The notes beneath the pieces were generated by a model, which searched no databases, was not told where the DNA came from, and saw only the letters and a program-made list of their open reading frames with translations. The position numbers and the translations under genes are program-made. Shown here in pieces: positions 30,477-50,195 of a stretch of DNA of 64,000 bases; position 1 is the stretch's first letter, and every line of letters begins with the position of its first letter. Source of the DNA: Escherichia phage SME50; the sequence record MT887289.1. One strand, given 5' to 3'.

Positions 30477-30762
30477 CGTTAAACTCTCTGACGAAGAAAT
30501 AGTTGACTTTGTTATTACCTACCATAAGGTCAAAGCAGGTGTTCTCAAAAGGTTTGTTGTAGGCATCATATGAAGTGTACGTATCAGCTACTTGTTTAGT
30601 GTTGAGCTTTTTACTTGATGGATTTAAGAGGCCACCATACAGTTTCTTGATAGCCTCTTCTACAACAGACCAGATGATTTCGTCAGTAATTTCTTCGTAC
30701 AGGTCAAGTTCACGCTCTAGTGAGAAGTCACAAATAGGGAAAATAACCTGCACTTTACTCAT
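30469..30762 (-). CDS. hypothetical protein
   Basis: 97-aa ORF. Confidence 0.5.
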   Translation of the reverse strand: MSKVQVIFPICDFSLERELDLYEEITDEIIWSVVEEAIKKLYGGLLNPSSKKLNTKQVADTYTSYDAYNKPFENTCFDLMVGNNKVNYFFVREFNDE

Positions 30763-31157
30763 TAACGGATAACCTGTGTGACTTGAATTGCTTCAGTTAC
30801 GGACAATTCACCTACTTTCTCTTCTTTGATAAAAGTGAAGGTGAGTTCAACAGGTTCTTCCTCTTCTTGCTCAACTGGAACACCATTAAGCTCATCAAAG
30901 ATTGATTGGGTTGTCCAGTCTTCACCACCATCTGGGTAGTGGACTGCGTAAAGAGGAAACTCTAAATTATACCAAGCAAAAACAGGGCAACCATCTGCAT
31001 CATCTCGGCATCTGTGGAGATATGTGTTTGTACCTTCAAAATGCAAATGGAGATTACCATTCTTCTCAAAGAGAAGAGCATCTCGCAGGTCTAGTTCCTC
31101 ATTTTCGCTGTAACGGCTGACATCAACTTTAACGTGGATATGACTGTTATTATTCAT
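30762..31157 (-). CDS. hypothetical protein
   Basis: 131-aa ORF. Confidence 0.5.
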   Translation of the reverse strand: MNNNSHIHVKVDVSRYSENEELDLRDALLFEKNGNLHLHFEGTNTYLHRCRDDADGCPVFAWYNLEFPLYAVHYPDGGEDWTTQSIFDELNGVPVEQEEEEPVELTFTFIKEEKVGELSVTEAIQVTQVIR

Positions 31158-31548
31158 AAAAACCTCTCTCTGCTTGTTCGATTTTTTCTCTTAAAATTTC
31201 GCAATGTTGTAAATGGTAGTTAGCTTCTTGTTCATGTGTTGCTAACTGCCTTTCCAGAACAGTTTTATAGTAACCTGCAAGTTGCTCTTTTGTCAATGGG
31301 TGCTCTGAAATAATATCAAGCCCACTTTCACCAAGAGGGTTGAATTGTCCATGCTCATTGACATTGTAAGTCTCAAACTTGAACAGGCCATTGTTCACAG
31401 ATTCAATAGGTGACAATTCAACAAGCTCTACAGTAAATCGTGTATACACCTTGTCGCCTCTTGAAACCACATTGTTTCCGACAATGCGTACAAGCGAACC
31501 ATTACGTGTGTACTTAAAAGTTCCAAAGTCACTAGCCCAAAGCTTCAT
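31150..31548 (-). CDS. hypothetical protein
   Basis: 132-aa ORF. Confidence 0.5.
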   Translation of the reverse strand: MKLWASDFGTFKYTRNGSLVRIVGNNVVSRGDKVYTRFTVELVELSPIESVNNGLFKFETYNVNEHGQFNPLGESGLDIISEHPLTKEQLAGYYKTVLERQLATHEQEANYHLQHCEILREKIEQAERGFYE

Positions 31549-31565
31549 AGTTTTCTCCTTAGAAA

Positions 31566-31590
31566 ATAAAAAAGGCTCCCGAAGGAGCCT
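31566..31590 (-). terminator. rho-independent terminator downstream of the lysozyme gene
   Basis: Minus-strand GGCTCC-TTCG-GGAGCC hairpin followed by TTTTTT. Confidence 0.55.
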
Positions 31591-31599
31591 ATGAAGATA

Positions 31600-32064
31600 T
31601 TACTTTGGGTATACACTGTCAAGATAAATGTCAGCTTCCATTCTACGTCTGTTTTTCAGACCATTTGAAGTGACCTTCTTACCTTTGACTGTAACCTTGT
31701 TCCACCACTGCATAGCTTCTGCACAACCTACCTTGTTACCAGCATTGTGGCGCTTGATAAATGTAGACTCCTGCATAGCTGTGATACCGATGTTGTATGT
31801 TTCACTTACAAGTGCATCGAACTCATTCTGAGAAGTTGGAGCCTTGATAGCTTTATTCACTGCTGCAACAAACTTCTCAACATCTGCGAGAAGATACTGT
31901 TCAGCTTGTTCAGCCGTGATTTTCATACCCATCTTAACAGGTTTTCCGTCAATACGGATTGTACCATACCCGATTGTTGGGATTCCGGCAGAGTCTTCGT
32001 AAGCCTCTAACTTCAGACCTTCAAAGAACTTAATAGCTTCTAAACCTTTTCTTGAGAGTTGCAT
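31600..32064 (-). CDS. phage lysozyme (GH24, T4-lysozyme-like; probable endolysin)
   Basis: 154-aa ORF with catalytic-region motif EGLKLEAYEDSAGIPTIGYG characteristic of GH24 phage lysozymes. Confidence 0.8.
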   Translation of the reverse strand: MQLSRKGLEAIKFFEGLKLEAYEDSAGIPTIGYGTIRIDGKPVKMGMKITAEQAEQYLLADVEKFVAAVNKAIKAPTSQNEFDALVSETYNIGITAMQESTFIKRHNAGNKVGCAEAMQWWNKVTVKGKKVTSNGLKNRRRMEADIYLDSVYPK

Positions 32065-33449
32065 TATGCCTCCCCTGCTGGGTTAACTGTAACTGTTGCC
32101 GCATTAGATGTTACAGAGCCACCTGCACCAGTCACTACACAAGTGTAGCTTCCTGCATCAGCAGCAGTTGCACCTTCTTTGGTGTAAGTTGCAGTCGTTG
32201 CGTCTGGGATGACTTCCTCACCTTTCTTCCACTGGTAACCTGTTGCACCAGTTGCCACAACATTCAGCGTTAAGGTCTCACCTTCAGTGATTTCTTGATT
32301 GGCTGGTTGTTGAGTGATGACTGGAAGAGCATTAACGGTAACAGTTGCAGCATTAGATGTTACTGTTGTACCACCTGCACCAGTAACTACACAGGTATAT
32401 GAACCAGCATCGGCAGGGTCTGCTTTAGCTTTCGTGTAAGTTGCACCAGTTGCACTAGGGATGTTCACATTATCTTTCTTCCATTGATAACCTGTTGCAC
32501 CTGTGGCCTCAATACTCAGCGTCAAACTGCCACCTTCATTGACTACTTGGTTAGTTGGCTGCTTGGTAATAACTGGCAAAGCATTTACCGTGACAGTTGC
32601 AGGGTTAGAAGTAACAGAACCTCCAGCACCAGTTACAACGCAAGTGTAAGAACCTGCATCTGCTGGAAGCGCACCAGATTTGCTATAGTTAGCATTTGTA
32701 GCTGATGGGATGTCAGAGCCATCTTTCTTCCATTGGTAGCCTGTTGCACCTGTTGCAGTAACTGATAAGTCAATGTTTCCACCCTCATTAATGGTCTGGC
32801 TAGAAGGTTGCTGTGTAATCACAGGCAGTGCGTTCACAGTAACTGTTGCTGCATCTGAGGTGACACTTGTTCCACCATCTCCAGATACAGCACAAGTGTA
32901 TGAACCAGCGTCAGAAGGTGCTACAGATTGTTTTGTATAGGTTGCAGATGTGGCACTGGAGATATTCTCACCATCCTTCTTCCATTGATACCCAGTGGCA
33001 TTAGTTGCGAGAACACTTAGGGTAAGTGCTCCACCTTCATTGACTGTTTGGTTTGTCGGTTGCTGAGTAATTACTGGTGGCTTAATGGCATCCTTCAACT
33101 TAGCATTCAACATTGAGAACGGTTTAACTCTTGCCAACCATTCACAATACACTGTGTCAACGTCTTTACCATTGATAATTGCATATTGTAAATCCATGAA
33201 GAAGTCAGAAGTTCTCATTTGAGCACCGACGCTGTAAAGCAAATCATCACTAAAAGGAACTTTGTAGTCTGGTTTGTAGTCAAACTTCTTAACCTCTGCG
33301 ATATCAGCTTCAGGCCAATATGAGCTATAGGTGAGTGGTAAAATAGCTTCTTGATATGTTCTAAAATCATATCTCTTACCAGCCTTTACATTTGCGATGA
33401 AGCCCTTCACAAATTCTTTGAAGTCTGGGTAAGTCTTTGCTTTAATCAT
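32064..33449 (-). CDS. Ig-like repeat protein (four tandem Ig-like domains after an N-terminal domain)
   Basis: Four repeats of about 90 aa each carrying PVITQQP...TGATGYQWKK...DAGSYTCVVTGAGG; N-terminal domain paralogous to the upstream 123-aa ORF. Confidence 0.6.
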   Translation of the reverse strand: MIKAKTYPDFKEFVKGFIANVKAGKRYDFRTYQEAILPLTYSSYWPEADIAEVKKFDYKPDYKVPFSDDLLYSVGAQMRTSDFFMDLQYAIINGKDVDTVYCEWLARVKPFSMLNAKLKDAIKPPVITQQPTNQTVNEGGALTLSVLATNATGYQWKKDGENISSATSATYTKQSVAPSDAGSYTCAVSGDGGTSVTSDAATVTVNALPVITQQPSSQTINEGGNIDLSVTATGATGYQWKKDGSDIPSATNANYSKSGALPADAGSYTCVVTGAGGSVTSNPATVTVNALPVITKQPTNQVVNEGGSLTLSIEATGATGYQWKKDNVNIPSATGATYTKAKADPADAGSYTCVVTGAGGTTVTSNAATVTVNALPVITQQPANQEITEGETLTLNVVATGATGYQWKKGEEVIPDATTATYTKEGATAADAGSYTCVVTGAGGSVTSNAATVTVNPAGEA

Positions 33450-33817
33450 TTCTTTTTAGCCTCTAAACGTGCGTTTAATCTAAAATAGCCTTTATGTTGT
33501 GGAGACACATCACCAACAACGATACCTTCAACTTTATAACCTTTACCGATTACATACTGGATATCCATAAGAAATGTACCAAGTCCTACAATGTGGAACA
33601 TTGGATATAATAACTTATCTGAATCTGGGAGATTAATATCTGGGTTGTAGGTAGGTTGTTTACTAGTAGGTGTAATATCTTCTTCAGGCCATTTACTTAG
33701 TCTCCATGTCAAAGGTGTTGGGATAACATCATTAAGATTGTACCTCCCACCATTCTCCACGGAATGGATATAGGATTGTAGGAAGCAATAAAAGTCTTTT
33801 GCACTCTTAGCTTTCAT
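33446..33817 (-). CDS. hypothetical protein, paralog of the N-terminal domain of the Ig-like repeat protein
   Basis: Shared motifs (KDFY/KEFV, GGRYNLND/GKRYDFRT, WPEEDI/WPEADI, FLMDIQYVIGKG/FFMDLQYAIINGK). Confidence 0.5.
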   Translation of the reverse strand: MKAKSAKDFYCFLQSYIHSVENGGRYNLNDVIPTPLTWRLSKWPEEDITPTSKQPTYNPDINLPDSDKLLYPMFHIVGLGTFLMDIQYVIGKGYKVEGIVVGDVSPQHKGYFRLNARLEAKKK

Positions 33818-33825
33818 TAAATATC

Positions 33826-33856
33826 CTTATAAATAGATAAAGGGGCATTAGCCCCT
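33826..33856 (-). terminator. putative terminator
   Basis: Palindrome AGGGGC-ATTA-GCCCCT just downstream (minus sense) of the 33865-34455 gene. Confidence 0.4.
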
Positions 33857-33864
33857 GTTTATAC

Positions 33865-34455
33865 TTAAGCTTTGGTCTTAAGTAGGTTCTTAAGTTTTTT
33901 GAGATTCATGCTCTCGTCAAACTTAAAACCAAATCCATTGACATAATCAATGAACTCGGATTTCTTACTAAGTGATAGCGCGTAACTCATATCAAAGTTA
34001 TTACTTGTTTCTGCGTCTGGACTAGAGTTCACATCAAATGAAATTTCTGTAGGCTCTTGCTTGCTACTTCTCATATTATCAATTAATAGGCATGTATAGT
34101 TCGCTGGATAGAAGTTTGCACTGCCATCAACATACCCATACTTATTGTTGTGAATAAGGTTTGAAAATACCTTAAGAAATGTTTCTGAGTCGTGGCATAC
34201 AAGTTTGAATTGGCTGCATTCTCCAAGAGCCACTAAAGAATAAGGGCTTTCACTATCAATGTCGTAGTTTGGATTTGATGTTGTAACCGTCACACGCATC
34301 AAGTTATTAGCAATAGTCTTCTGCTTGAAAGAATTTGGGACATAGTGAAGACCTCTATCACACTGATTAACTAACTCTTTAAGTAGGTCGTTTGCATATG
34401 GTGAATTAATTGATACAGAGCCATCACTATTATAGTTAAAACTTACTGTTAACAT
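33865..34455 (-). CDS. hypothetical protein
   Basis: 196-aa ORF. Confidence 0.5.
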   Translation of the reverse strand: MLTVSFNYNSDGSVSINSPYANDLLKELVNQCDRGLHYVPNSFKQKTIANNLMRVTVTTSNPNYDIDSESPYSLVALGECSQFKLVCHDSETFLKVFSNLIHNNKYGYVDGSANFYPANYTCLLIDNMRSSKQEPTEISFDVNSSPDAETSNNFDMSYALSLSKKSEFIDYVNGFGFKFDESMNLKKLKNLLKTKA

Positions 34456-34682
34456 TTTTCAGTTCTCCTGCGATTTATGATTTTGCTGCAATAGAGAAAC
34501 GAAGTAAACTCACTGGAAGAAACCATTAAGTGTTGTTCACTAGATTGAGCCATTGCCCTGAAATACATTCCAGTCAAAGCATCGTAGTGACTATTCTTTC
34601 CAATTGAGGTTATATAGCTATGACTCTTTGCAGTTTTATATAAATCTATAATATCTGCGATTTCTAATTGGGAACTACACAT
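34449..34682 (-). CDS. small hypothetical protein
   Basis: 77-aa ORF preceded (minus sense) by AAGAGGA RBS-like sequence. Confidence 0.45.
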   Translation of the reverse strand: MCSSQLEIADIIDLYKTAKSHSYITSIGKNSHYDALTGMYFRAMAQSSEQHLMVSSSEFTSFLYCSKIINRRRTEKC

Positions 34683-34919
34683 AGATAATCCTCTTGTCTT
34701 CTGTAATTTTGAAAGAACAGGTACAGACCAATTTCAGAGGATGAATAGTAGAGTAACTCTACCCTTTTTGATTCCTTACAGTGATTGGTATTTTTACCTT
34801 TCTTCGGGTTGTTTGATTTTCTCATTAAGTCTCCTTTGTAGAACAAGGCAGACCTACAGCTTTAAGTAAGATGGTACAGTAATCCATACAACAAGTCAAG
34901 AACTATTGCAAGTTAAAAA

Positions 34920-34960
34920 AGTTGTTGACAAAGTACTTGACAAGGTGTAGGCTTATAAAT
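34920..34960 (+). promoter_or_regulatory. divergent promoter region (tandem TTGACA boxes, TATAAATA element)
   Basis: GTTGTTGACAAAGTACTTGACAAGGTGTAGGCTTATAAATAC between minus- and plus-strand gene blocks. Confidence 0.35.
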
Positions 34961-35074
34961 ACTTAGAAGATAACTTAAAAGGTTCCTCTAAAAAGGCTAT
35001 TTAAACAGATATCTTTCTGGATATCTATCTTTTATCTTAAAAGCCTTTTAAGAGGTCTTATAAGAGGCATACCA

Positions 35075-35446
35075 ATGAAAAACAGAACAAACAAAGGCCA
35101 GTTTAAAAAAGGCCAGTCTGGTAACCCATCTGGAAGACCGAAAGGTTCTCGTAACAAAAGCTCACTTGTAAAAGCTCAACTGACCATTGATAATTCTGCT
35201 GAGTTTGCTGCAAAGTTGTTTGAAGCGATTGTTACAAGGGACGCTGCTAAGCTTGCAGAGTTCGGGTTAAACACAGATGACGTAACCATCAAGAGCATGA
35301 TTGAGGTCGGTAAAACTATCTTTACTCACTCAGCAGGTGAGATGAAAGCACTTGCAGCAGACACTAAGAAGACTTCTGATAATGGTGGTCAGTCACAGAC
35401 AGATAACAAACCAACGTTCTCTGCTGTAGCGACTCTCAAAAAATAA
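35075..35446 (+). CDS. hypothetical protein with basic Gly/Pro-rich N-terminal motif
   Basis: 123-aa ORF; N-terminus KGQFKKGQSGNPSGRPKGSRNK. Confidence 0.5.
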   Translation: MKNRTNKGQFKKGQSGNPSGRPKGSRNKSSLVKAQLTIDNSAEFAAKLFEAIVTRDAAKLAEFGLNTDDVTIKSMIEVGKTIFTHSAGEMKALAADTKKTSDNGGQSQTDNKPTFSAVATLKK

Positions 35447-35458
35447 TTTTAAAAGGTG

Positions 35459-35493
35459 TTGACAGACTCTACAAAGTTGCTCTAAAGTCTGTC
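35459..35493 (+). promoter_or_regulatory. TTGACA box overlapping a perfect 8-bp inverted repeat (GACAGACT-N17-AGTCTGTC); promoter/operator candidate
   Basis: Seen directly upstream of the vWA-protein gene. Confidence 0.4.
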
Positions 35494-35526
35494 ACATCAA
35501 CCAACAATGAGAGAAGAGAGTAAAAT

Positions 35527-36942
35527 ATGAGCGAATTATTTAAACATGCGCACCTTCATGCAGGTCGAACTGAAAATGGTGCTGTAAACCATACTTCATC
35601 AATGTCTGCTCTGGTAGACTTCTACAAAGCCGCTGGCTCAAGCCGTAGCAATGTAGAAATCTTACCAGACCTGTTCTACAAAGCTTTGCGTGAGGATGTT
35701 GATGTTGCAGTTCGTATTTTACTGCATATGCGAGATGTACGAGAAGGTATGGGTGAGCGTAAAGCTTTCCGAACTGTTTTACTTCAAGCGATTGAAGATA
35801 AGGTTTTAGAACCTACACAGGTTCTTCGCATTATGGATAAGATTGCAGAACTTGGTCGTTTTGATGACTTCAAAATCTTTGTAGGTACTCGTTTTGAGAC
35901 AGATGCCTTCAAACATTTAGAAGCAGCATTACTAGACCCTGCAACAGCAGGTTTAGCGGCTAAGTGGTTACCACGAGTAAAACCACGCCACAAACAGTTT
36001 GTAAAACGTTTCTGTAAGTTTGCAAACTTAAGTGAGAAGGAGTATCGCACACTGTTATCTGCACTGTCCGATACGGTTGAGCAAAAAATCTCTGCTAATG
36101 AGTTTGGTAAGATTGACTACAGCAAGATTCCTTCACTCGCTGCTGCACGTTACCAAAAGCTCTTTAACCGTAAAGATGGTGAACGTTACAAAGCTTATAT
36201 CGAGTCACTCTCAAAGGGTGAGGCTAAGATTAACGCTGGTGCCGTTTACCCATACGATGTGATTAAATCTATCAAGTATGGTAATGCAGGTGTTGCTAAT
36301 GAGCAGTGGAAAGCACTACCAAACTGGATGGCAGAGGGTGAAAACATCTTGTGTATGACTGATGTTTCAAGCTCAATGTCTTGGGTGAATCTTGGTTCAA
36401 TCACTGCCCTTGATATTGGCGTATCACTTGCCTTGTATGTAGCAGAACGCAATACAGGTTGCTTTAAGAATGAGTTAATGGTTTATTCAACAAACCCTCA
36501 CTTCATCGAACTGAGTGGTGATTTGAGAAACCGTCACCGTCAGGTAATGCGTCATGTTGAATATGGTTCAACTAACTTACAAGCAGCTTTTGACCGCATT
36601 CTTGAAATAGGTAAGAGAAACAACTTGACTCAGAAAGATATGCCAAGTAAGCTTATTATCTTCTCTGATATGGAGTTTAATCAGGTTGATGGTGCAAATG
36701 GTCGTACAAACTTTGAAGCAATTCAGAGTAAGTACAAAAAAGCTGGATACGAAATGCCACAACTAGTATTCTGGTACTTAGCAAACCGTAATGGTACTTG
36801 CGAAGTATCTGTTAAAGATAATGGTGTAGCAATGGTATCAGGGTTCTCTCCAGCCACTTTAAAAGCTCTGCTTGGTGGTGAGAAGTTTGACCCAATCAGC
36901 GTAATGCTCAAAGCAGTAATGATTGACCGTTACATCTGGTAA
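35527..36942 (+). CDS. vWA (MIDAS) domain protein with large alpha-helical N-terminal domain; candidate Ro60/TROVE-like RNA-binding protein
   Basis: 471-aa ORF; MIDAS-type motif LCMTDVSSSMSW in the C-terminal third; lies immediately upstream of the tRNA array. Confidence 0.45.
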   Translation: MSELFKHAHLHAGRTENGAVNHTSSMSALVDFYKAAGSSRSNVEILPDLFYKALREDVDVAVRILLHMRDVREGMGERKAFRTVLLQAIEDKVLEPTQVLRIMDKIAELGRFDDFKIFVGTRFETDAFKHLEAALLDPATAGLAAKWLPRVKPRHKQFVKRFCKFANLSEKEYRTLLSALSDTVEQKISANEFGKIDYSKIPSLAAARYQKLFNRKDGERYKAYIESLSKGEAKINAGAVYPYDVIKSIKYGNAGVANEQWKALPNWMAEGENILCMTDVSSSMSWVNLGSITALDIGVSLALYVAERNTGCFKNELMVYSTNPHFIELSGDLRNRHRQVMRHVEYGSTNLQAAFDRILEIGKRNNLTQKDMPSKLIIFSDMEFNQVDGANGRTNFEAIQSKYKKAGYEMPQLVFWYLANRNGTCEVSVKDNGVAMVSGFSPATLKALLGGEKFDPISVMLKAVMIDRYIW

Positions 36943-37107: not shown

Positions 37108-37184
37108 CTCTGTTTAGCTCAGCTTGGTAGAGCGTTCCGTTTGGGGCGGTAAGGCCGGAGGTTCAAGTCCTCCAACAGAGACCA
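37108..37184 (+). tRNA. tRNA-Pro(TGG)
   Basis: Manual fold: acceptor CTCTGTT/AACAGAG, D-arm GCTC...GAGC, anticodon loop TTTGGGG, T-arm GGAGG-TTCAAGT-CCTCC, CCA encoded. Confidence 0.7.
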
Positions 37185-37191
37185 AATTAAT

Positions 37192-37269
37192 GTTCCAGTA
37201 GACAAAACGGTAAAGTCACCACTCTTTCAAAGTGGATATTTGAGGGTTCAAATCCCTTCTGGAACGCCA
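37192..37269 (+). tRNA. tRNA-Glu(TTC)
   Basis: Acceptor GTTCCAG/CTGGAAC, anticodon stem CCACT/AGTGG with loop CTTTCAA, T-loop TTCAAAT, CCA encoded. Confidence 0.7.
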
Positions 37270-37276
37270 GTTTTGA

Positions 37277-37349
37277 CAGAAGACCAATTGCAGCAAACTT
37301 AATCTTATTCATCTGACACGAAATCGGACAAAGAAGATATTTGGTCTGG
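37277..37349 (+). ncRNA. conserved inverted-repeat element A (CAGAAGACCAA ... TTGGTCTGG)
   Basis: 7-bp closing helix; conserved 5' block CAGAAGACCnnnTTGCAGCAAA; immediately follows a tRNA 3' end. Confidence 0.35.
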
Positions 37350-37360
37350 TCATTAAGAAT

Positions 37361-37437
37361 TGCGGGTATAGAGAAAGGGCGTCTCACATGTCTCATTAGC
37401 ATGGTATCGGCAGGTTCGACTCCTGCACCCGCCTCCA
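37361..37437 (+). tRNA. tRNA-Met(CAT), possibly initiator-type
   Basis: Anticodon stem CATGT/GCATG with loop CTCATTA; T-arm GCAGG-TTCGACT-CCTGC; position 1-72 unpaired (T/C); CCA encoded. Confidence 0.6.
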
Positions 37438-37443
37438 ATTTTG

Positions 37444-37503
37444 CAGAAGACCGTATTCAGCAACAAAATACTTTTTGCGGATAAAAGAAAAAACACGGTC
37501 TGG
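37444..37503 (+). ncRNA. conserved inverted-repeat element B (CAGAAGACCGT ... ACGGTCTGG)
   Basis: 7-bp closing helix around an A/T-rich loop; shares the 5' block with elements A, C, D. Confidence 0.35.
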
Positions 37504-37514
37504 CAATGTATTAA

Positions 37515-37591
37515 GGTTAGGAAGCACATAAGGTATGTGCGGTCGCCTGTTAAGCGAATGGCACAGGGTTCGAATCCCTGACTAACCGCAA
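37515..37591 (+). tRNA. tRNA-Asn(GTT)
   Basis: D-arm GCAC...GTGC, anticodon loop CTGTTAA, T-arm CAGGG-TTCGAAT-CCCTG; 3' end reads CAA not CCA. Confidence 0.6.
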
Positions 37592-37600
37592 AATTTAAAT

Positions 37601-37688
37601 GTGTCGTTATCCCGTAGATGGTAGCGGTGGGGACTGTAAATCCCTTGTCATTGAGACTCGGTAGGTTCGACTCCTACACGGCACACCA
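37601..37688 (+). tRNA. tRNA-Tyr(GTA), class II
   Basis: Acceptor GTGTCGT/ACGGCAC, anticodon stem GGGGA/TCCCT with loop CTGTAAA, long variable arm, T-arm GTAGG-TTCGACT-CCTAC, CCA encoded. Confidence 0.7.
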
Positions 37689-37710
37689 ACACTTAGCGAG
37701 ATACTTAGTT

Positions 37711-38139
37711 ATGAGAGATGAAGTATACAAATCACAACTTGGTATGAGTTTAGGAACTGCACAAAACAGACTAGTAAAAGATTTGCTATTTGATTTTATA
37801 TGTAAAACAAATCAAAATAGATGTTTTCAGTGCGGAAAGGAAATGACTAGGGATGATTTCTCTATCGAGCATAAGATTCCGTGGAGACATAGTGAAAATG
37901 CAAAAGAGCTTTTCTTTTCACTAGATAACATTTCTTATAGTCATCTTAAATGCAACATGAAAGCAGCAAGACCAGCACAGATAAGTGAAAGAAAACCTAA
38001 AACAATTAAACACGGAACTGCGTATAGCTATTACAAAGGCTGTAGATGCGATGCGTGTAGGCTGGCTAAGAATGCTGAGAGTAGAAGAAACTATAGTCCA
38101 GAAAGACGTAGGAAGAAGTATATAAGAAATGGTACATAG
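37711..38139 (+). CDS. HNH homing endonuclease inside the tRNA array
   Basis: CFQCGK...EHKIPW...N...H HNH motif; start moved to ATG 37711 because the track ORF start (37618) overlaps tRNA-Tyr. Confidence 0.65.
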   Translation: MRDEVYKSQLGMSLGTAQNRLVKDLLFDFICKTNQNRCFQCGKEMTRDDFSIEHKIPWRHSENAKELFFSLDNISYSHLKCNMKAARPAQISERKPKTIKHGTAYSYYKGCRCDACRLAKNAESRRNYSPERRRKKYIRNGT

Positions 38140-38144
38140 GTTTT

Positions 38145-38220
38145 GGGGTATTAGTTTAGACGGGTAAAATACTGGATTGTCTCTCCTGAGCCGCGAGTTC
38201 GATTCTCGCATACCTCGCCA
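38145..38220 (+). tRNA. tRNA-Asp(GTC)
   Basis: Acceptor GGGGTAT/ATACCTC, anticodon loop TTGTCTC (one stem mismatch), T-arm GCGAG-TTCGATT-CTCGC, CCA encoded. Confidence 0.55.
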
Positions 38221-38281
38221 ATTTTGAGAGGGCTATTTAGCCCCTCCCTTAAAGAGTTCTTACGAGTATTCTTTAAAGGAG

Positions 38282-38355
38282 CAGAAGACCAAATTCAGCA
38301 AGTTACTTAAAATTTCAAGCCAATTTAATTTTGAAAAATTTAAAACTTGGTCTGG
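38282..38355 (+). ncRNA. conserved inverted-repeat element C (CAGAAGACCAA ... TTGGTCTGG)
   Basis: Same family as A/B/D; A/T-rich interior. Confidence 0.35.
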
Positions 38356-38368
38356 CTCAACAAATTTA

Positions 38369-38500
38369 CAGAAGACCGTTTACAGCAAAACTTAAACAAT
38401 CTATTTCTCCGGTAAAGAAAAGGCGAAGGTTCGATTCCTTCACTCGGCAGATGTCGAGTTGGTGTAATGGTAGCACTTAAGATGATAAACAACGGTCTGG
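38369..38500 (+). ncRNA. candidate Y-RNA-like ncRNA: circularly permuted tRNA-like module closed by an 8-bp terminal helix (element D)
   Basis: Order 5'-helix, CTTAA, T-arm GAAGG-TTCGATT-CCTTC, acceptor-3' ACTCGGC, acceptor-5' GTCGAGT, D-arm GTGT-AATGGTA-GCAC, TTAAG, 3'-helix; the two acceptor halves are complementary to each other. Confidence 0.45.
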
Positions 38501-38507
38501 TAATTGT

Positions 38508-38639
38508 CTTTGTAGATAAGTTATTAAGCTTACCTGTGAGTATGCGACCACAAAGGGTGAAAGGGTAAATTCTAGATTTAAACCCAACAAGGCACATCGC
38601 TACAGACCTTAAGCAAGTCTGGGTAGCTTATCTACAAAG
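38508..38639 (+). ncRNA. structured element bounded by a perfect 13-bp inverted repeat (CTTTGTAGATAAG ... CTTATCTACAAAG)
   Basis: 13-bp perfect IR encloses about 105 nt including an internal CAGACC...GTCTGG hairpin; no ORF. Confidence 0.35.
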
Positions 38640-38649
38640 ATAATTTAAT

Positions 38650-38725
38650 GGAAGTGTAGCAGAATGGTGATGCGGCAGACTTTTAATCTGACAGGCGATG
38701 GGTTCGAATCCCTCCACTTCTACCA
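38650..38725 (+). tRNA. tRNA-Lys(TTT)
   Basis: Acceptor GGAAGTG/CACTTCT, anticodon loop CTTTTAA, T-loop TTCGAAT, CCA encoded; T-stem has only 3 clean pairs. Confidence 0.55.
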
Positions 38726-38729
38726 AAAT

Positions 38730-38806
38730 GGTTCAGTCGCAGATAAGGTAATGCAGGGGTTTCATAAGCCCTATGAATGTGGGTTCGATTCCCATCTGAA
38801 CCTCCA
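38730..38806 (+). tRNA. tRNA with CAT anticodon (elongator Met or Ile2)
   Basis: Acceptor GGTTCAG/CTGAACC, anticodon stem GGGGT/GCCCT with loop TTCATAA, T-arm GTGGG-TTCGATT-CCCAT, CCA encoded. Confidence 0.6.
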
Positions 38807-38808
38807 AT

Positions 38809-38884
38809 GCTGTGAAAGCACATATGGATGTGCATTCGGCTGATAACCGAAAGGAAGAAGGTTCGAATCCTTCTCACAGTACCA
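38809..38884 (+). tRNA. tRNA-Ile(GAT)
   Basis: D-arm GCAC...GTGC, anticodon stem TTCGG/CCGAA with loop CTGATAA, T-arm GAAGG-TTCGAAT-CCTTC, CCA encoded. Confidence 0.7.
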
Positions 38885-38899
38885 ATTTCAATAAAGTTG

Positions 38900-38928
38900 T
38901 TGACATTGAGATGTGACCACTTTATAGT
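38900..38928 (+). promoter_or_regulatory. sigma70-like promoter within the tRNA array
   Basis: TTGACA - 17 nt - TATAGT. Confidence 0.55.
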
Positions 38929-39250
38929 AACTAAAATACTTCATAATATGTATAATTCAAACACCAATACATGAGCGTTAGACGTAACACAATGTGGGGA
39001 AATTTGTTGTACATATTCTGAATAGTTTTCGTTGCGTAGCGTCTATTTTGCAAATTTAAAATAAATGCAAACGACAATGTTTTTCTGGCAGTAGCTTGAT
39101 AGGCTAAACACCAGTGAGGTCTTCCAATCCCTCATCAAAGAATTTGGCGTACTCGCCCACGGTATGATTAATAAGGTGGGCAACATTCTAAAGGGTATCC
39201 CTTATGGGGCTTGGCTTAAATGCAATGAGTACCCTTTAAAATGTTAATTA

Positions 39251-39332
39251 CGGGGCGTATCTCAGCGGTCTTCTAAACCGCCGTTAACCGAGTAAGTGGA
39301 GTATGCGGGTTCGAGTCCTGCCGCCTCGACCA
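39251..39332 (+). tRNA. atypical tRNA-like gene (good acceptor/T-arm and a TCT-containing stem-loop, but no recognisable D-arm); isotype uncertain
   Basis: Acceptor CGGGGCG/CGCCTCG, T-arm GCGGG-TTCGAGT-CCTGC, CCA encoded; internal hairpin GCGGT-CTTCTAA-ACCGC. Confidence 0.35.
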
Positions 39333-39346
39333 ATTTTGGATGAAAT

Positions 39347-39695
39347 CATGAAGACTTGTATTAGGTGCAAACTTAGCAAGGATGAAAGTGATTTCTACAT
39401 GAAAGATGGTAGGAGAACTCATTCATACTGTAAAAAGTGTGTTAATGAGCAAACCATAGAAAGACAAAGAGCACTTAAACTTTCAGCTATTGAGTACAAA
39501 GGTGGTGTTTGTCAGGATTGTGGTAAAAGGTATCATCCAGCAGTGTATGACTTCCATCATTTGAATCCTTCAGAGAAAGATTTTAACATTGCTCATAGAA
39601 GAAGTCTTAAGTTCTCTCAGGAGCTTAAGAACGAACTTGACAAATGTGTTTTGCTATGTTCAAATTGCCATAGGGTAAGACATGCAAAGTATTAG
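39347..39695 (+). CDS. HNH endonuclease (zinc-finger plus HNH) inside the tRNA array
   Basis: CIRC...CKKC zinc-finger then HHLNP...CVLLCSNCHRVRH; start moved to ATG 39347 because the track ORF start overlaps the upstream tRNA-like gene. Confidence 0.65.
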
Positions 39696-39832
39696 TTAGC
39701 AGATTGCTTAGACGACCTTATCGGGTCTCCGTGTAAGGAGGTGGTCTGTATCTCATGTTTTCCAGAACATGTAAATAATCTGAGAAGGGGCTTTACAGTG
39801 TTGCGAAAATACGGTAAGCTTCGAATTATAGT

Positions 39833-39915
39833 GTGGGACGATGTTAAGACTCTAAGGCATGAGCAACGGCCTCCAAAACCGTTTCAAAGGGGTTCAACTC
39901 CTCCGTCCCATGCCA
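39833..39915 (+). tRNA. tRNA-Trp(CCA) (D-region longer than canonical)
   Basis: Acceptor GTGGGAC/GTCCCAT, anticodon loop CTCCAAA as in bacterial tRNA-Trp, T-loop TTCAACT, CCA encoded. Confidence 0.45.
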
Positions 39916-39928
39916 AAGTCTTATTAGG

Positions 39929-40016
39929 GGTAGGTAGCGGCTAATGGCAGCCAAACAGTCTTGAAAACTGTTGCCACTGTAGAGATACGGTGAGGGTTCG
40001 ACTCCTTTACTTACCG
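39929..40016 (+). tRNA. tRNA-Ser(TGA), class II
   Basis: Acceptor GGTAGGT/ACTTACC, anticodon stem ACAGT/ACTGT with loop CTTGAAA, long variable arm, T-loop TTCGACT; CCA not fully encoded. Confidence 0.6.
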
Positions 40017-40175
40017 CCTAATAAGATTTTACACCGTCCATGCTTGCTCGCATTTTCGGTTTATCCCTCGTGTATTGTCGTACACACTGATAAAGCACCT
40101 AGTAGGTGTCACGGAGAAGAGATAATATCAAGCTCTCCAAAGGTTCTAGTCACCGGATTAAACAAGACTATGCAA

Positions 40176-40195
40176 AGACCTAAATAGGTCTTTTT
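40176..40195 (+). terminator. rho-independent terminator
   Basis: AGACCT-AAAT-AGGTCT hairpin followed by TTTTT. Confidence 0.5.
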
Positions 40196-40274
40196 AGAGG
40201 GCTTCTAAGGTTATTACAGCTTGTTGTGGAACCTTGTTGCTTAGGTTCTTAGAAGTTCTCTAAAAAGATTTAAT

Positions 40275-40352
40275 GGGAGATTGACGGTAATTGGTAAACC
40301 TACCATCCTTAGAAGTTGGTGTTTGAGGGTTCGAATCCCTTGTCTCCTACCA
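40275..40352 (+). tRNA. tRNA with anticodon TAG (Leu-type anticodon) but short variable arm; identity uncertain
   Basis: Acceptor GGGAGAT/GTCTCCT, anticodon loop CTTAGAA, T-arm GAGGG-TTCGAAT-CCCTT, A73, CCA encoded. Confidence 0.45.
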
Positions 40353-40359
40353 AATTAAT

Positions 40360-40435
40360 GCAGGTGTAGCAAAATGGTTATGCGGCTGACTCTTAATCAG
40401 TAAGACGATGGGTTCAATTCCCTCCACCTGTACCA
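40360..40435 (+). tRNA. tRNA-Lys(CTT)
   Basis: Paralog of the 38650 tRNA: acceptor GCAGGTG/CACCTGT, anticodon stem GCTGA/TCAGT with loop CTCTTAA, T-loop TTCAATT, CCA encoded. Confidence 0.55.
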
Positions 40436-40439
40436 AATT

Positions 40440-40515
40440 GGGGTCATAGTTTATATGGTTAAAATTCGAGTTTTGCAAACTTGGGAACTGAGTTCAATTC
40501 TCAGTGACTCCACCA
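40440..40515 (+). tRNA. tRNA-Ala(TGC)
   Basis: Acceptor GGGGTCA/TGACTCC, anticodon loop TTTGCAA, T-arm CTGAG-TTCAATT-CTCAG, CCA encoded. Confidence 0.65.
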
Positions 40516-40521
40516 ATTAGT

Positions 40522-40596
40522 GCATCCATAGTTTAAACGGGAAAATTACAGTCTTCCAAACTGAGGTTGAGGGTTCGATTCCCTCTGGATGCTCCA
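40522..40596 (+). tRNA. tRNA-Gly(TCC)
   Basis: Acceptor GCATCCA/TGGATGC, anticodon loop CTTCCAA, T-arm GAGGG-TTCGATT-CCCTC, CCA encoded. Confidence 0.65.
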
Positions 40597-40603
40597 AATT
40601 AAT

Positions 40604-40679
40604 GCTCCTATCGTATAATTGGCTATTACGGTTGCCTTGTAAGCAACTTATCAGGGTTCGAATCCTTGTGGGAGCACCA
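40604..40679 (+). tRNA. tRNA-Thr(TGT)
   Basis: Acceptor GCTCCTA/TGGGAGC, anticodon stem GTTGC/GCAAC with loop CTTGTAA, T-arm CAGGG-TTCGAAT-CCTTG, CCA encoded. Confidence 0.7.
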
Positions 40680-40682
40680 ATT

Positions 40683-40770
40683 CAGAGGTCAAGTGAAAGA
40701 CCGCTTTGAGTCAACTGAAGACCGTAACAAATTCCACGGAGTTGAGTTAGCGGCACAACTTCAGACCTCT
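40683..40770 (+). ncRNA. inverted-repeat element E (CAGAGGTC ... GACCTCT) containing a GAAGACC block
   Basis: 7-bp closing helix and internal hairpins; immediately follows tRNA-Thr. Confidence 0.3.
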
Positions 40771-40775
40771 TTCAT

Positions 40776-40850
40776 ACTCGCTTAGTTTATATGGTAAAAC
40801 ACCACCCTTACAAGATGAAGAAAAAGGTTCAAGTCCTTTAGTGAGTACCA
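40776..40850 (+). tRNA. tRNA-Val(TAC) (weak anticodon stem)
   Basis: Acceptor ACTCGCT/AGTGAGT, D-arm GTTT...AAAC, anticodon loop CTTACAA, T-arm AAAGG-TTCAAGT-CCTTT, CCA encoded. Confidence 0.45.
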
Positions 40851-40851
40851 T

Positions 40852-40929
40852 GTTCCAGTATCCCAATTGGCAGAGGATGCAAGCTCAAACCTTGTACTAG
40901 TGACGGTTCGAATCCGTCTTGGAACACCA
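40852..40929 (+). tRNA. tRNA with anticodon CAA (Leu-type anticodon) but short variable arm; identity uncertain
   Basis: Acceptor GTTCCAG/TTGGAAC, anticodon stem GCAAG/CTTGT with loop CTCAAAC, T-arm GACGG-TTCGAAT-CCGTC, A73, CCA encoded. Confidence 0.5.
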
Positions 40930-40934
40930 ATTTT

Positions 40935-41010
40935 GCAGGATTAGTTCAAATGGATAGAGCAACAGTCTACGAAGCTGTTAATAGGGGTTCGAATCCCTTA
41001 TCCTGCGCCA
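40935..41010 (+). tRNA. tRNA-Arg(ACG)
   Basis: Acceptor GCAGGAT/ATCCTGC, D-arm GTTC...GAGC, anticodon stem ACAGT/GCTGT with loop CTACGAA, T-loop TTCGAAT, CCA encoded. Confidence 0.7.
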
Positions 41011-41029
41011 ATTTAAAGAGGCTATTTAG

Positions 41030-41587
41030 ATGAGATATTTGAAGTATGCTTCATGGATTTTCTTAGCTTTGTTAGAACCATTAGCAGCAATCTTAGCAGT
41101 TATCTTAGCACCTTTCGTAGTTCCATTTTACAGTGAGAAGAAAGGACACTTACCTTTCGGATTTAGATGGATGGAAACTTATGACAACCCGATTGATGGT
41201 GATGAAGGTCATGTCAAACGATGGGCTAAGATTAGAAAGATTGGTAAGCTCGGTGTCTATATGCAGAGAGTCGGATGGCTCTGGAGAAACAAAGCTTATA
41301 ACTTCTCCTACCATGTGTTAGGAAGAGATGTAAAAGATGTTACTAAGTGGAAAGGTAATATCAACGTAAGTTCTGACCCTGAAGATAATCAGACAGGTTA
41401 TCTCTTAATGTGGAACAGCAATGCTTGGGGATTATTCGCTTTTGTACCATCAATTAAAATCTTTGGTAAACAATTCTACTGGAGAATTTATGTTGGATGG
41501 AAACTTAAAAGTGTTGTCCCAGAAGAAAGAGCATTCTCAAGGGAAAGAGTTATGTTGGCATTCTTTATTCATCCACTAAGAAAGTAA
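41030..41587 (+). CDS. membrane protein (N-terminal TM helix) embedded in the tRNA array
   Basis: 185-aa ORF; hydrophobic N-terminus WIFLALLEPLAAILAVILAPFVVPF; Trp-rich remainder. Confidence 0.5.
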   Translation: MRYLKYASWIFLALLEPLAAILAVILAPFVVPFYSEKKGHLPFGFRWMETYDNPIDGDEGHVKRWAKIRKIGKLGVYMQRVGWLWRNKAYNFSYHVLGRDVKDVTKWKGNINVSSDPEDNQTGYLLMWNSNAWGLFAFVPSIKIFGKQFYWRIYVGWKLKSVVPEERAFSRERVMLAFFIHPLRK

Positions 41588-41595
41588 AGATTTAA

Positions 41596-41671: not shown

Positions 41672-41673
41672 AT

Positions 41674-41752: not shown

Positions 41753-41757
41753 AATTT

Positions 41758-41833: not shown

Positions 41834-41864
41834 CTTCTAAGGATTCTTACGAGAGTCCTTAAAT

Positions 41865-49088: not shown

Positions 49089-50195
49089 ATGTTGACTAAT
49101 TCTGAAAAAAGCAGATTTTTCCTTGCTGACCTGACTGGTGAAGTCCAGTCTATCCCAAATACTTATGGGTATATTTCCAACTTAGGTCTGTTCCGTTCAG
49201 CACCAATCACCCAAACTACTTTCCTTATGGACTTGACTGATTGGGATGTTAGCTTGCTTGATGCGGTAGACCGTGATAGCCGTAAAGCAGAGACTAGCGC
49301 ACCTGAGCGTGTTCGTCAAATCAGCTTCCCAATGATGTATTTCAAAGAAGTTGAAAGCATCACTCCTGATGAAATTCAGGGTGTACGTCAGCCAGGCACT
49401 GCAAACGAACTGACTACTGAAGCTGTAGTACGTGCTAAGAAGCTGATGAAGATTCGTACCAAGTTCGATATTACTCGTGAGTTCCTGTTTATGCAAGCTC
49501 TGAAGGGTAAAGTTGTTGACGCTCGTGGTACTCTGTACGCTGACCTGTACAAGCAGTTCGACGTTGAGAAGAAAACTGTTTACTTCGACCTTGACAACCC
49601 TAATGCTGACATTGACGCTTCTATTGAAGAACTGCGTATGCACATGGAAGATGAAGCGAAGACTGGCACTGTAATCAACGGTGAAGAAATTCACGTAGTT
49701 GTTGACCGTGTATTCTTCAGCAAACTGGTTAAGCATCCTAAGATTCGTGACGCTTATCTTGCACAGCAGACTCCGCTGGCTTGGCAACAGATTACTGGTT
49801 CTCTGAGAACTGGTGGTACTGACGGCGTTCAGGCTCACATGAACACTTTCTACTACGGTGGTGTTAAGTTTGTCCAGTACAACGGTAAGTTCAAAGACAA
49901 GCGTGGTAAGGTTCACACTCTGGTGAGCATTGACAGCGTAGAAGCTACTGTTGGTGTTGGTCATGCTTTCCCTAACGTTTCTATGCTGGGCGAAGCAAAC
50001 AACATCTTTGAAGTGGCATATGGCCCATGTCCTAAGATGGGTTATGCAAATACACTTGGTCAGGAACTGTACGTATTCGAATACGAAAAAGACCGTGACG
50101 AAGGTATTGACTTCGAAGCTCACTCTTACATGCTGCCATACTGTACTCGTCCTCAGTTGCTGGTAGATGTTCGCGCTGATGCTAAAGGCGACTAA
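49089..50195 (+). CDS. major capsid protein (putative)
   Basis: 368-aa ORF after the protease/scaffold gene; codon usage distinct from neighbours (CTG, CGT, GGT rich). Confidence 0.6.
   Translation: MLTNSEKSRFFLADLTGEVQSIPNTYGYISNLGLFRSAPITQTTFLMDLTDWDVSLLDAVDRDSRKAETSAPERVRQISFPMMYFKEVESITPDEIQGVRQPGTANELTTEAVVRAKKLMKIRTKFDITREFLFMQALKGKVVDARGTLYADLYKQFDVEKKTVYFDLDNPNADIDASIEELRMHMEDEAKTGTVINGEEIHVVVDRVFFSKLVKHPKIRDAYLAQQTPLAWQQITGSLRTGGTDGVQAHMNTFYYGGVKFVQYNGKFKDKRGKVHTLVSIDSVEATVGVGHAFPNVSMLGEANNIFEVAYGPCPKMGYANTLGQELYVFEYEKDRDEGIDFEAHSYMLPYCTRPQLLVDVRADAKGD

Follow-up and report, generated by a model that had tools for sequence, protein, structure and literature searches.

A probable capsid hexamer decoration protein with four Ig-like repeats and its capsid-binding-domain paralogue beside the endolysin gene of a Felixounavirus

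Gene organization of the locus

By its sequence, the phage analyzed here is a Felixounavirus (a Felix O1-like myophage); the window, that is, the whole 64,000-nucleotide stretch of DNA, showed 98.7% identity to phages ZX4221 and vB_EcoM_Shy in a sequence comparison. The locus comprises a 123-aa ORF, a 461-aa ORF and an endolysin gene, all on the minus strand. Below, the 461-aa protein is named Hex-Dec (hexamer decoration protein), its N-terminal domain CapBD (capsid-binding domain), and the 123-aa product the paralogue. The features are given in the order of transcription of the locus, followed by the major capsid protein gene.

33841..33856, minus strand: terminator-like hairpin between a 196-aa upstream gene and the paralogue gene
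33446..33817, minus strand: predicted stand-alone CapBD paralogue, 123 aa (PHROG 4463; Bas63 gene 125, Felix O1 ORF37, VpaE1 ORF40c)
33446..33449, minus strand: ATGA overlap of the paralogue stop codon and the Hex-Dec start codon
32064..33449, minus strand: putative Hex-Dec ORF, 461 aa (ORF calling and homology)
33078..33449, minus strand: N-terminal CapBD of Hex-Dec, essentially identical to the modelled part of 9NCF chain S
32826..33077, minus strand: Ig-like repeat 1 (aa 125–208), capsid-proximal, orthologous in all relatives (Pfam Ig_3/Ig_2/I-set)
32577..32825, minus strand: Ig-like repeat 2 (aa 209–291), only in the three- and four-repeat forms
32325..32576, minus strand: Ig-like repeat 3 (aa 292–375), only in the four-repeat forms
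32064..32324, minus strand: Ig-like repeat 4 (aa 376–461) with the stop codon, distal, orthologous to the last repeat of the two- and three-repeat forms
31600..32064, minus strand: endolysin (Pfam Phage_lysozyme, E 2e-40)
31573..31590, minus strand: terminator-like hairpin and T-run directly 3′ of the endolysin gene
49089..50195, plus strand: major capsid protein (MCP), 368 aa (Pfam Phage_cap_E, E 2e-78)

The Shine-Dalgarno sequence of Hex-Dec (GAGG) sits within the 3′ end of the paralogue gene and, as read from the gene junction, the ATGA overlap is a translational coupling of the paralogue to Hex-Dec. The endolysin gene lies downstream of Hex-Dec, and its start shares 1 nt with the Hex-Dec stop (TAATG). 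The two hairpins bracket this three-gene unit, and the upstream one is also kept in Felix O1, mio, SP116 and Moogle. The ATGA coupling and the hairpins on both sides suggested that the paralogue, Hex-Dec and the endolysin are co-expressed. No sigma-70-like site was found between the upstream hairpin and the start codon of the paralogue. A recurring motif upstream of the paralogue, CTATTTATAAGGA, was considered as a promoter and rejected: the window has two matches, and chance alone would give 2.6.

Hex-Dec is placed directly upstream of the endolysin gene and outside the structural module, which contains a terminase-size ORF from ~43.4 kb and the MCP gene, and which is encoded on the opposite strand. 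About 10 kb and a block of 25 tRNA genes separate the two. The preliminary description had likewise placed the locus next to a lysozyme gene and away from the main structural block.

Architecture and identity of the 461-aa protein

The 461-aa protein consists of a 124-aa N-terminal domain and four tandem repeats of 83–86 aa, which shared pairwise identities of 65–76% at the protein level and 67–73% at the DNA level. In a Pfam search, Ig_3 matched in four stretches (E 4e-43), and Ig_2 and I-set also matched in four stretches each. The ORF coordinates, the repeat alignment and the profile matches thus bore out an earlier claim of a minus-strand protein with an N-terminal domain and four Ig-like repeats. 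The pattern of repeats and duplicated domain is far beyond chance. The CapBD is basic (computed pI 8.5) and the Ig part acidic (pI 4.4). A pseudo-C2 internal repeat was reported in the CapBD of Bas63 (PMC12609058). By eye, a similar FL...G.(K/R)Y motif follows each of two helices in the CapBD.

Repeat number varied from one to four among the relatives, as had been anticipated in the preliminary description and as was already published (PMC12609058). Repeat 1 showed 89–92% identity to repeat 1 of Bas63, Felix O1 and mio, and repeat 4 showed 84–97% identity to the last repeat of Felix O1, mio, P0097 and Bas63. Compared with Bas63, repeats 1, 2, and 4 were 89–95% identical, whereas repeat 3 shared only 71% identity with its counterpart. 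From these alignments, the internal repeats 2 and 3 appear to be those gained or lost between relatives.

In a phmmer search against the PDB, the 461-aa protein matched 9NCF chain S of Bas63 (E 3e-269, over aa 1–459) and 9C2D chain S, which is Sf14 gp20 (E 2e-165, over aa 1–373). Its Bas63 orthologue is ~90% identical. Both orthologues were modelled in capsid cryo-EM maps (9NCF_S and 9C2D_S). In these T=9 heads, every pentamer-adjacent hexamer has a single monomer at its center, 60 in all, while the 20 hexamers on the true three-fold axes were unoccupied, so that 60 of 80 hexamers were decorated (PMC12609058, PMC11821841). Arg79 and Arg107 of the Sf14 gp20 CapBD form salt bridges to MCP Asp221, pairing with this residue of three capsid subunits (PMC11821841). 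The CapBD in the window carries R79 and R107, and residue 221 of the window's MCP is D. By virion mass spectrometry, Sf14 gp20 (PMC11821841) and Felix O1 gp36 were detected. With full-length homology, the two arginines and their MCP partner, and four Ig-like domains all found, it is very probable that the 461-aa protein is the Felixounavirus Hex-Dec of the Sf14 gp20 family. The hexamer-center position in the present phage is carried over from the ~90%-identical orthologues and would be the same here.

The virion-surface location that had been proposed for the protein agrees with the capsid structures and the mass spectrometry of its orthologues. The earlier proposal gave no site on the virion; the site is the head, at the hexamer centers, and not the tail as most database records say. 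Many records carry a tail-protein annotation, a label which traces back to "gene 36, tail protein" of Felix O1, and the 461-aa protein indeed matched PHROG 3995 "tail protein" (E 3e-239), with Ig repeats resembling those of major tail proteins (PHROGs 158, 853, and 3575). However, this likeness is limited to promiscuous Ig domains, and the orthologues sit on capsid hexamers in the cryo-EM models. A tail protein, as in GenBank and PHROG 3995, is thus hardly conceivable, and the common annotation, refuted by two capsid structures, is wrong.

In the proposed arrangement, the basic 124-aa domain would plug, as it was shown to do in the orthologues, as a monomer into the acidic hexamer center, and the four acidic Ig-like domains would project as a flexible fiber with an inferred length of ~15 nm. 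Solely by analogy with T4 Hoc, the fiber would probably give the virion a weak, non-essential hold on surfaces, glycans or other particles, and the adhesion to carbohydrates or mucus named in the preliminary description would follow from the same analogy. An adhesion or aggregation role has been proposed for Hoc-type fibers (PMC12609058). In the PhageMaP data, Bas63 gene 124 had only a mild, host-specific fitness effect.

Among known systems, Hex-Dec of Bas63 (JohannRWettstein) has the same architecture, a CapBD and four Ig-like domains, and its gene likewise adjoins the endolysin gene outside the structural module; the two proteins differ at the sequence level only. Sf14 gp20 (PDB 9C2D/9C3A chain S) has three Ig domains instead of four. 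We regard Hex-Dec as a functional analogue of T4 Hoc and T5 pb10. Like Hex-Dec, Hoc is a dispensable monomer at hexamer centers with an acidic fiber of Ig-like domains, but the Hex-Dec CapBD is smaller, topologically distinct and of minimal sequence conservation with that of Hoc (PMC12609058). The order of the domains is also reversed, with the Ig domains first and a C-terminal CapBD in Hoc, and Hex-Dec, unlike Hoc, skips the three-fold hexamers. No Hoc chain was found among the best 60 of 85 PDB sequence matches to the 461-aa protein, and PHROG "Hoc-like" matches covered only the Ig region (aa 289–459). T5 pb10 similarly combines an N-terminal helical capsid-binding domain with a C-terminal Ig-like part and is a dispensable monomer at hexamer centers (PMC5292684). 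In contrast to Hex-Dec, it carries a single Ig domain, and on its T=13 capsid none of the 120 hexamers is left empty. The pb10 Ig domain matched repeat 3 (5lxk_A, E 4e-12; 8zvi_a, E 8e-12), and the alignment was confined to this domain (aa 300–374 against 8zvi_a residues 82–159); the 77-aa N-terminal domain of pb10 had no match to the Hex-Dec CapBD.

The stand-alone CapBD paralogue

The 123-aa ORF aligned end to end with aa 2–119 of Hex-Dec (36% identity, E 1e-16), in keeping with the preliminary description of a diverged copy of the N-terminal domain alone. Against PDB sequences, it matched 9ncf_S (E 3e-12) and 9c2d_S (E 3e-11), with no other matches. An AF2 model of the paralogue was of moderate confidence only (pLDDT 66, pTM 0.67). 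Searching the PDB with this model in Foldseek, the sole significant matches were 9ncf_S (E 1.4e-4, TM 0.58, 122 columns) and 9c2d_S, and T5 pb10 (5LXL) was not retrieved. By sequence, the 123-aa ORF is a true CapBD-only paralogue; by its model it has the CapBD fold, and it is basic (pI 8.9) like the CapBD.

The paralogue is a full-length member of PHROG 4463 (E 2.5e-78), to whose family Felix O1 ORF37, Bas63 gene 125, VpaE1 ORF40c and Moogle gp89 belong. It was 76–100% identical across Felixounavirus, Mooglevirus, and Suspvirus. Of 252 Ounavirinae records, 233 contained a match with ≥60% identity, and in every locus opened the paralogue adjoined Hex-Dec. A distant 87-kb metagenomic phage carried it as well, in the same gene order. 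In 16–19 of the 252 relatives it was lost or pseudogenised, and viable isolates such as mio and SP116 carry it as a degraded pseudogene. In the NJ tree, the paralogues and the CapBDs of Hex-Dec formed one clade each, both with 100% bootstrap support and with the same branching order, and the paralogue branches were longer; very probably, one old tandem duplication gave rise to the paralogue. Its dN/dS was 0.10–0.16, compared with 0.02–0.10 for the CapBD, with dS up to 1.6–1.8, and its C-terminal 55 residues were nearly invariant. Judged by substitution rates, the paralogue is under purifying selection, yet can be lost.

The positions of Arg79 and Arg107 are occupied by Gly78 and Gln107 in the paralogue, and both are nearly invariant within its family, while Lys109 is kept across the entire CapBD family. 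One or both of the arginines are likewise missing from distant CapBD proteins that occur as a single copy, so the loss of these residues is compatible with capsid binding by the paralogue. Only 12 of 1.84 billion representative proteins matched a profile of paralogues and CapBDs at E ≤ 0.001, and two word-indexed searches for wider relatives returned close relatives only. In the more distant relatives of the locus, the CapBD occurs in a single gene, joined to Big_2, to an Ig domain or to a Lys-rich tail. No homology of the paralogue to anything else was detected among the 1.84 billion representative proteins. As far as these searches reach, the family is narrow.

The paralogue is apparently a non-virion protein. 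Felix O1 gp37 was absent from the whole-virion shotgun list (Table 4A), in which proteins of 9.7–13 kDa and ones at ~6–20 copies were detected, and digestion of the paralogue with trypsin would give six good peptides, among them YNLNDVIPTPLTWR and VEGIVVGDVSPQHK. It also seems to be missing from VpaE1 virions. None of the chains in the deposited Bas63 and Sf14 structures represents it. For the three-fold hexamers, neither phage was reported to show density, and no discussion of the paralogue was found in the two structural papers (PMC12609058, PMC11821841). In S17-1, the PhageMaP scores of Bas63 gene 125 lay around zero or slightly above it, and those from a second strain were noisy; they indicated that the gene is not essential; the PhageMaP text named no defense-related phenotype for it.

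Possible roles of the paralogue and significance

Several explanations were weighed for the conservation of a CapBD without a fiber. We tentatively favor the view that the paralogue may bind capsid hexamer centers transiently or at low copy number, as opposed to being a stable virion component. Co-expressed with Hex-Dec and the endolysin, it might act on proheads, for instance, or compete with Hex-Dec. Against capsid binding stand the empty hexamers without density, the missing PDB chain, the absence from the Felix O1 virion list, the replacement of the anchoring Arg pair of Sf14 gp20, the pseudogenes of viable mio and SP116, and the near-zero knockout score in Bas63. Much the same evidence would fit a small intracellular protein which left capsid biology for another partner and merely kept the ancestral fold; it could, for instance, assist Hex-Dec folding as a chaperone, bind a host protein or counteract defense. 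The paralogue was not detected in virions, evolved faster than the CapBD by both dN/dS and branch length, and lost the anchoring arginines; some natural isolates, as well as phage in the laboratory, can do without it. However, the tight linkage and translational coupling to Hex-Dec in all lineages that carry it, the PhageMaP text without a defense phenotype, and the lack of other homology make this departure from the capsid somewhat unlikely. It seems unlikely, too, that the paralogue is a fiber-less competitor or place-holder at hexamer centers, which would bind proheads or three-fold hexamers transiently or at low occupancy and set where and how densely the Ig fibers are shown. In that case, mio and SP116, which lack the paralogue, would show altered Hex-Dec occupancy, and capsid decoration would have a regulator encoded by a separate gene, the paralogue. 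We know of no such separate regulator described for Hoc- or pb10-type proteins.

A second, fiber-less decoration protein stably filling the 20 three-fold hexamers left empty by Hex-Dec was also considered. The CapBD fold, the basic charge and the co-translation with Hex-Dec are in line with this; Gly and Gln stand in place of two Arg, which in Sf14 gp20 cannot be engaged together at a three-fold hexamer, and the changed contact residues would suit the different Asp221 geometry there. Icosahedral averaging would blur a monomer on a three-fold axis. However, both papers report no density at these hexamers (PMC12609058, PMC11821841), no chain was modelled in any deposit, the protein was missing from the Felix O1 list despite the detection there of ~6–20-copy and 9.7-kDa proteins, and pseudogene lineages occur naturally, which makes a stable filler quite improbable. 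A functionless leftover of the duplication, drifting toward loss, would agree with the 16–19 losses and the non-essentiality in Bas63, but it is very improbable and already disfavored by the signal of selection: dN/dS is about 0.1 at such high dS, three genera and a distant metagenomic lineage retain an intact ORF, and the C-terminal residues hardly vary. Finally, Hex-Dec lies in the −1 frame relative to the paralogue and AAAAAG occurs 4 nt before the stop codon, so that a programmed −1 frameshift at T_AAA_AAG might yield a fusion protein with two CapBDs. This is scarcely credible and was rejected, since the heptamer is non-canonical (T, not A, at the first position) and is missing in Moogle (GCT AAG AAA TGA); moreover, Hex-Dec comes with a start codon and a Shine-Dalgarno sequence of its own, and the solved chains begin at its Met1.

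The identity, location and repeat variation of Hex-Dec were already known from the 2025 Bas63 and Sf14 papers (PMC12609058, PMC11821841), and the main feature counts as known since the repeat-number variation and the orthologue structures have been published. Hundreds of records that label Hex-Dec a tail protein call for an annotation correction, and the protein is relevant to phage display and phage therapy as an immunogenic, surface-exposed fiber. The conserved CapBD-only paralogue is the sole new angle. If it does not bind capsids, it is just another small phage protein. If it does, it would be a ready-made minimal anchoring module of ~14 kDa, and it could help to explain why Hex-Dec is found on only 60 of the 80 hexamers.

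Hex-Dec and its genomic setting

The 461-aa minus-strand ORF, read in the preliminary description as a protein with four tandem Ig-like repeats, was recovered exactly, and in Pfam the domains Ig_3 (E 4e-43), Ig_2 and I-set each matched it four times. Splitting at the recurring PVIT(Q/K)QP motif set the domain borders and gave a 124-aa N-terminal domain plus four repeats of 83–86 aa, which shared 65–76% protein identity and 67–73% DNA identity among themselves. In a PDB sequence search, residues 1–459 matched 9NCF chain S (E 3e-269), a chain from phage JohannRWettstein (Bas63) labelled "Immunoglobulin-like domain protein", and the protein also matched 9C2D/9C3A chain S, the "tail protein" of Shigella phage Sf14 (E 2e-165). 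Judged by these sequence matches, it is a structurally solved and published capsid decoration protein, here called Hex-Dec (hexamer decoration protein), in which the capsid-binding domain (CapBD) is N-terminal. The PHROG matches to "Hoc-like head decoration" were confined to its Ig region. The label "tail protein" in PHROG 3995 and most GenBank records traces to the 2010 Felix O1 annotation and is wrong on location; the orthologues sit on capsid hexamers.

Among the PDB matches listed for the Ig repeats (window 32067–33077), the highest after the two phage orthologues was GhpA, a bacterial grappling-hook protein from Aureispira (9flp_A, with 13 matched stretches and E 1.7e-84), which scored far above animal Ig proteins.

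Hex-Dec was said to lie next to the lysozyme gene and away from the main structural block, and both positions held: the locus belongs to a minus-strand block, and the structural module lies on the opposite strand beyond 25 tRNA genes.

Features of the locus and its setting (Hex-Dec and paralogue from the ORF list)
31590..31573, terminator-like hairpin just past the endolysin
31600..32064, minus strand, Phage_lysozyme endolysin, 154 aa (Pfam E 2e-40), directly downstream of Hex-Dec
32064..33449, minus strand, Hex-Dec, 461 aa; repeats at aa 125–208, 209–291, 292–375 and 376–461
33446..33817, minus strand, paralogue, 123 aa, upstream of Hex-Dec in transcription order
33856..33841, terminator-like hairpin just upstream of the paralogue
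37108–42947, cluster of 25 tRNA genes
from ~43.4 kb, plus strand, structural module, past the tRNA cluster
49089–50195, major capsid protein in the plus-strand module (Phage_cap_E, E 2e-78)

The paralogue stop codon shared ATGA with the Hex-Dec start, and the Hex-Dec stop and endolysin start overlapped in TAATG. From these overlaps and the flanking hairpins, the paralogue appears to be co-expressed with Hex-Dec. Window 31000–35000 matched 252 records in a megablast of phage genomes, nearly all Felixounavirus and related Ounavirinae with Escherichia, Salmonella, Shigella or Citrobacter hosts, led by Escherichia phages ZX4221 (98.7%) and vB_EcoM_Shy (98.5%). GU169904.1, labelled as the 147-kb Staphylococcus phage SA1, carried a Felix O1-type locus at 141242–144741 (~90% identity) and probably includes a segment that is chimeric or a contaminant.

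Several neighbouring features were also recorded. Two proteins were encoded at 35075–36942, divergent from the Hex-Dec block and directly upstream of the tRNA genes: one with DUF5681 (123 aa) and one of 471 aa of the DUF2828/DUF7788/vWA type, the latter called "RNA-binding protein" in some records; this pair was syntenic even in the distant metagenomic contigs L012 and L014. The ARAGORN tRNA-Tyr at 37601–37688 was absent from the Rfam matches and overlapped with an ORF of 173 aa; in the Felix O1 paper, the Tyr gene is entered as a pseudo-tRNA. Rfam added one weak tRNA-like element (39251–39329, 31.7 bits) that had no ARAGORN call. The 131-aa ORF at 30762–31157 is annotated as D-alanyl-D-alanine carboxypeptidase in several relatives; it had no Pfam match at E ≤ 0.01, and the annotation looks unsupported.

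Capsid position and repeat number

The orthologues occupy only the pentamer-adjacent hexamers, one per asymmetric unit and hence 60 per capsid, and no density appears in the Bas63 or Sf14 maps on hexamers at the true three-fold axes; the Ig-like domains are flexible and unresolved (PMC12609058, PMC11821841). Arg79 and Arg107 of Sf14 gp20, which was detected in virions by mass spectrometry, form salt bridges to Asp221 of three capsid subunits (PMC11821841). In Felix O1, the 294-aa orthologue ORF36 adjoins the endolysin ORF35, and its product gp36, labelled "tail protein" (31.6 kDa), reached 44% coverage in the virion list. The orthologue is thus a proven virion protein, as the preliminary description had supposed for Hex-Dec. 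R79 and R107 were kept in Hex-Dec of the window and D221 in its capsid protein; pI was 8.5 for CapBD (basic) and 4.4 for the Ig part (acidic). The mechanism established by homology would be a basic CapBD plug in the acidic hexamer centre with four acidic Ig domains pointing outwards, and the fibre is estimated at ~15 nm, assuming ~4 nm per Ig domain. Hoc-like roles in aggregation and in adhesion to bacterial or mucosal surfaces have been proposed (PMC12609058, PMC11821841), and by analogy the fibre may serve such a function. In the PhageMaP knockout screen, E. coli S17-1 was the only strain on which Bas63 gene 124 proved more important (~-0.1 to -0.2, vs +0.3 to +0.4 in another strain), which fits a dispensable, context-dependent accessory.

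Over the 1754-bp region, matches in the relatives ran for ~1754, 1502, 1253 or 1001 bp, lengths that stand for four, three, two or one Ig domains, so the suggested check for repeat-number variation returned a positive result. This range has already been reported, with Bas63 as the sole four-domain form among recognised species (PMC12609058). In a repeat-by-repeat comparison, the capsid-proximal first and distal last repeats had orthologues in all relatives; forms with two repeats (Felix O1, mio) consisted of repeats 1 and 4, and a three-repeat form (P0097) of repeats 1, 2 and 4. Repeat 3 of the window (32325–32576) shared just 71% identity with that of Bas63, vs 89–95% for repeats 1, 2 and 4; the fourth repeat may therefore be mosaic or fast-evolving. 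The pattern hints at its separate acquisition or at recombination inside the array.

The stand-alone CapBD paralogue

The 123-aa upstream ORF had been described as a diverged copy of the N-terminal domain, and BLASTP agreed (E 1e-16; 121 residues aligned at 36% identity, spanning residues 2–119 of Hex-Dec). It belongs to PHROG 4463, "unknown function" (E 2.5e-78), and its counterparts are Bas63 gene 125, Felix O1 ORF37, VpaE1 ORF40c and Moogle gp89. It was found by tblastn in 233 of the 252 records (60–100% identity), adjoining Hex-Dec in every locus examined, with its C-terminal 55 residues nearly invariant. Pairwise dN/dS was 0.10–0.16 (dS up to 1.6–1.8), compared with 0.02–0.10 for the Hex-Dec CapBD and mostly 0.02–0.09 for the endolysin. 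On this comparative record, the paralogue is a real, conserved gene. Its AlphaFold2 model (pLDDT 66, pTM 0.67) had only 9ncf_S (E 1.4e-4, TM 0.58, 122 aligned columns) and 9c2d_S as significant Foldseek PDB matches, and the CapBD fold is predicted to be kept.

At E ≤ 0.001, a profile built from paralogues and CapBDs retrieved only 12 of 1.84 billion representative proteins; the fold family is therefore narrow. A distant 87-kb metagenomic phage showed the same gene order as the window: a gene of 195 aa, the 122-aa paralogue, a two-Ig Hex-Dec and lysozyme. Still more distant contigs had DUF2828/DUF7788 and DUF5681 upstream, lysozyme downstream where long enough, and a single CapBD gene with no stand-alone copy. 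There the fusion partner of CapBD was Big_2, an I-set-like Ig domain or just a low-complexity tail rich in Lys (L009:869-1489, L017:367-981, L010:2179-2868, L012:3182-3799, L014:6001-6462), and because these display modules differ, it can be regarded as a modular anchor. In the NJ tree, paralogues and Hex-Dec CapBDs formed two clades (100% bootstrap each) with matching internal branching order. Together with the single CapBD of the distant contigs, this speaks for a single old tandem duplication, after which both copies were retained.

The paralogue is dispensable. Scores of Bas63 gene 125 in S17-1 were ~0 to +0.5, against ~-1 for essential structural genes in that strain, and the Hex-Dec match alone remained in 16–19 of the 252 records. 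In phages mio (L003 2806–2998) and SP116 (L004 2805–2998), which are viable Felixounavirus isolates, it was wrecked by start-codon loss, frameshifts and the same ~220-bp internal deletion; its last ~60 bp, holding the Hex-Dec Shine-Dalgarno sequence, were retained. Breakpoints shared by the two phages suggest that the loss occurred once and spread later.

Virion evidence and candidate roles of the paralogue

A sequence search of the PDB matched the paralogue to Hex-Dec chains only; therefore it is unmodelled in any Bas63 or Sf14 deposit. Felix O1 gp37 was absent from the whole-virion shotgun list, which held gp36 and proteins down to 9.7 kDa; six good tryptic peptides are expected from the paralogue. 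The VpaE1 paper names gp54, gp58 and gp68 as the only virion proteins new relative to Felix O1, and from this text gp40 presumably went unseen as well. The available evidence says that the paralogue is off the virion, or at least not stably on it. That it stably plugs the 20 three-fold hexamers and has been missed so far is accordingly unlikely. Gly78 and Gln107 stand in the paralogue at the two anchoring Arg positions of Sf14 gp20. One or both Arg residues are missing from distant single-copy CapBD proteins as well, and Lys109 is conserved family-wide, so the two substitutions fit either presence or absence of capsid binding.

What the data show for the paralogue is its homology to CapBD, the predicted shared fold, linkage to Hex-Dec, selection, dispensability and no trace in published virion data; any capsid binding would be putative. 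Ranked first, tentatively, is a transient or low-copy binder of the hexamer centre, which may act as a prohead place-holder or as a competitor shaping Hex-Dec display. Next, and a little less probable, is a role outside capsid biology with the fold retained. Both rank above the stable three-fold plug. A drifting remnant is more doubtful still, and a part in a frameshift fusion across the overlapping genes is very improbable.

The preliminary finding was real and its interpretation correct; Hex-Dec and its repeat-number variation are both already published. The Bas63 (PMC12609058) and Sf14 (PMC11821841) structural papers mention neither the paralogue gene nor "paralog" or "duplication", and the PhageMaP text does not mention gp125; among the papers searched, a single one has "Hex-Dec" as the name of a protein. 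The stand-alone CapBD paralogue is apparently an unreported, modest detail that is worth an annotation line.
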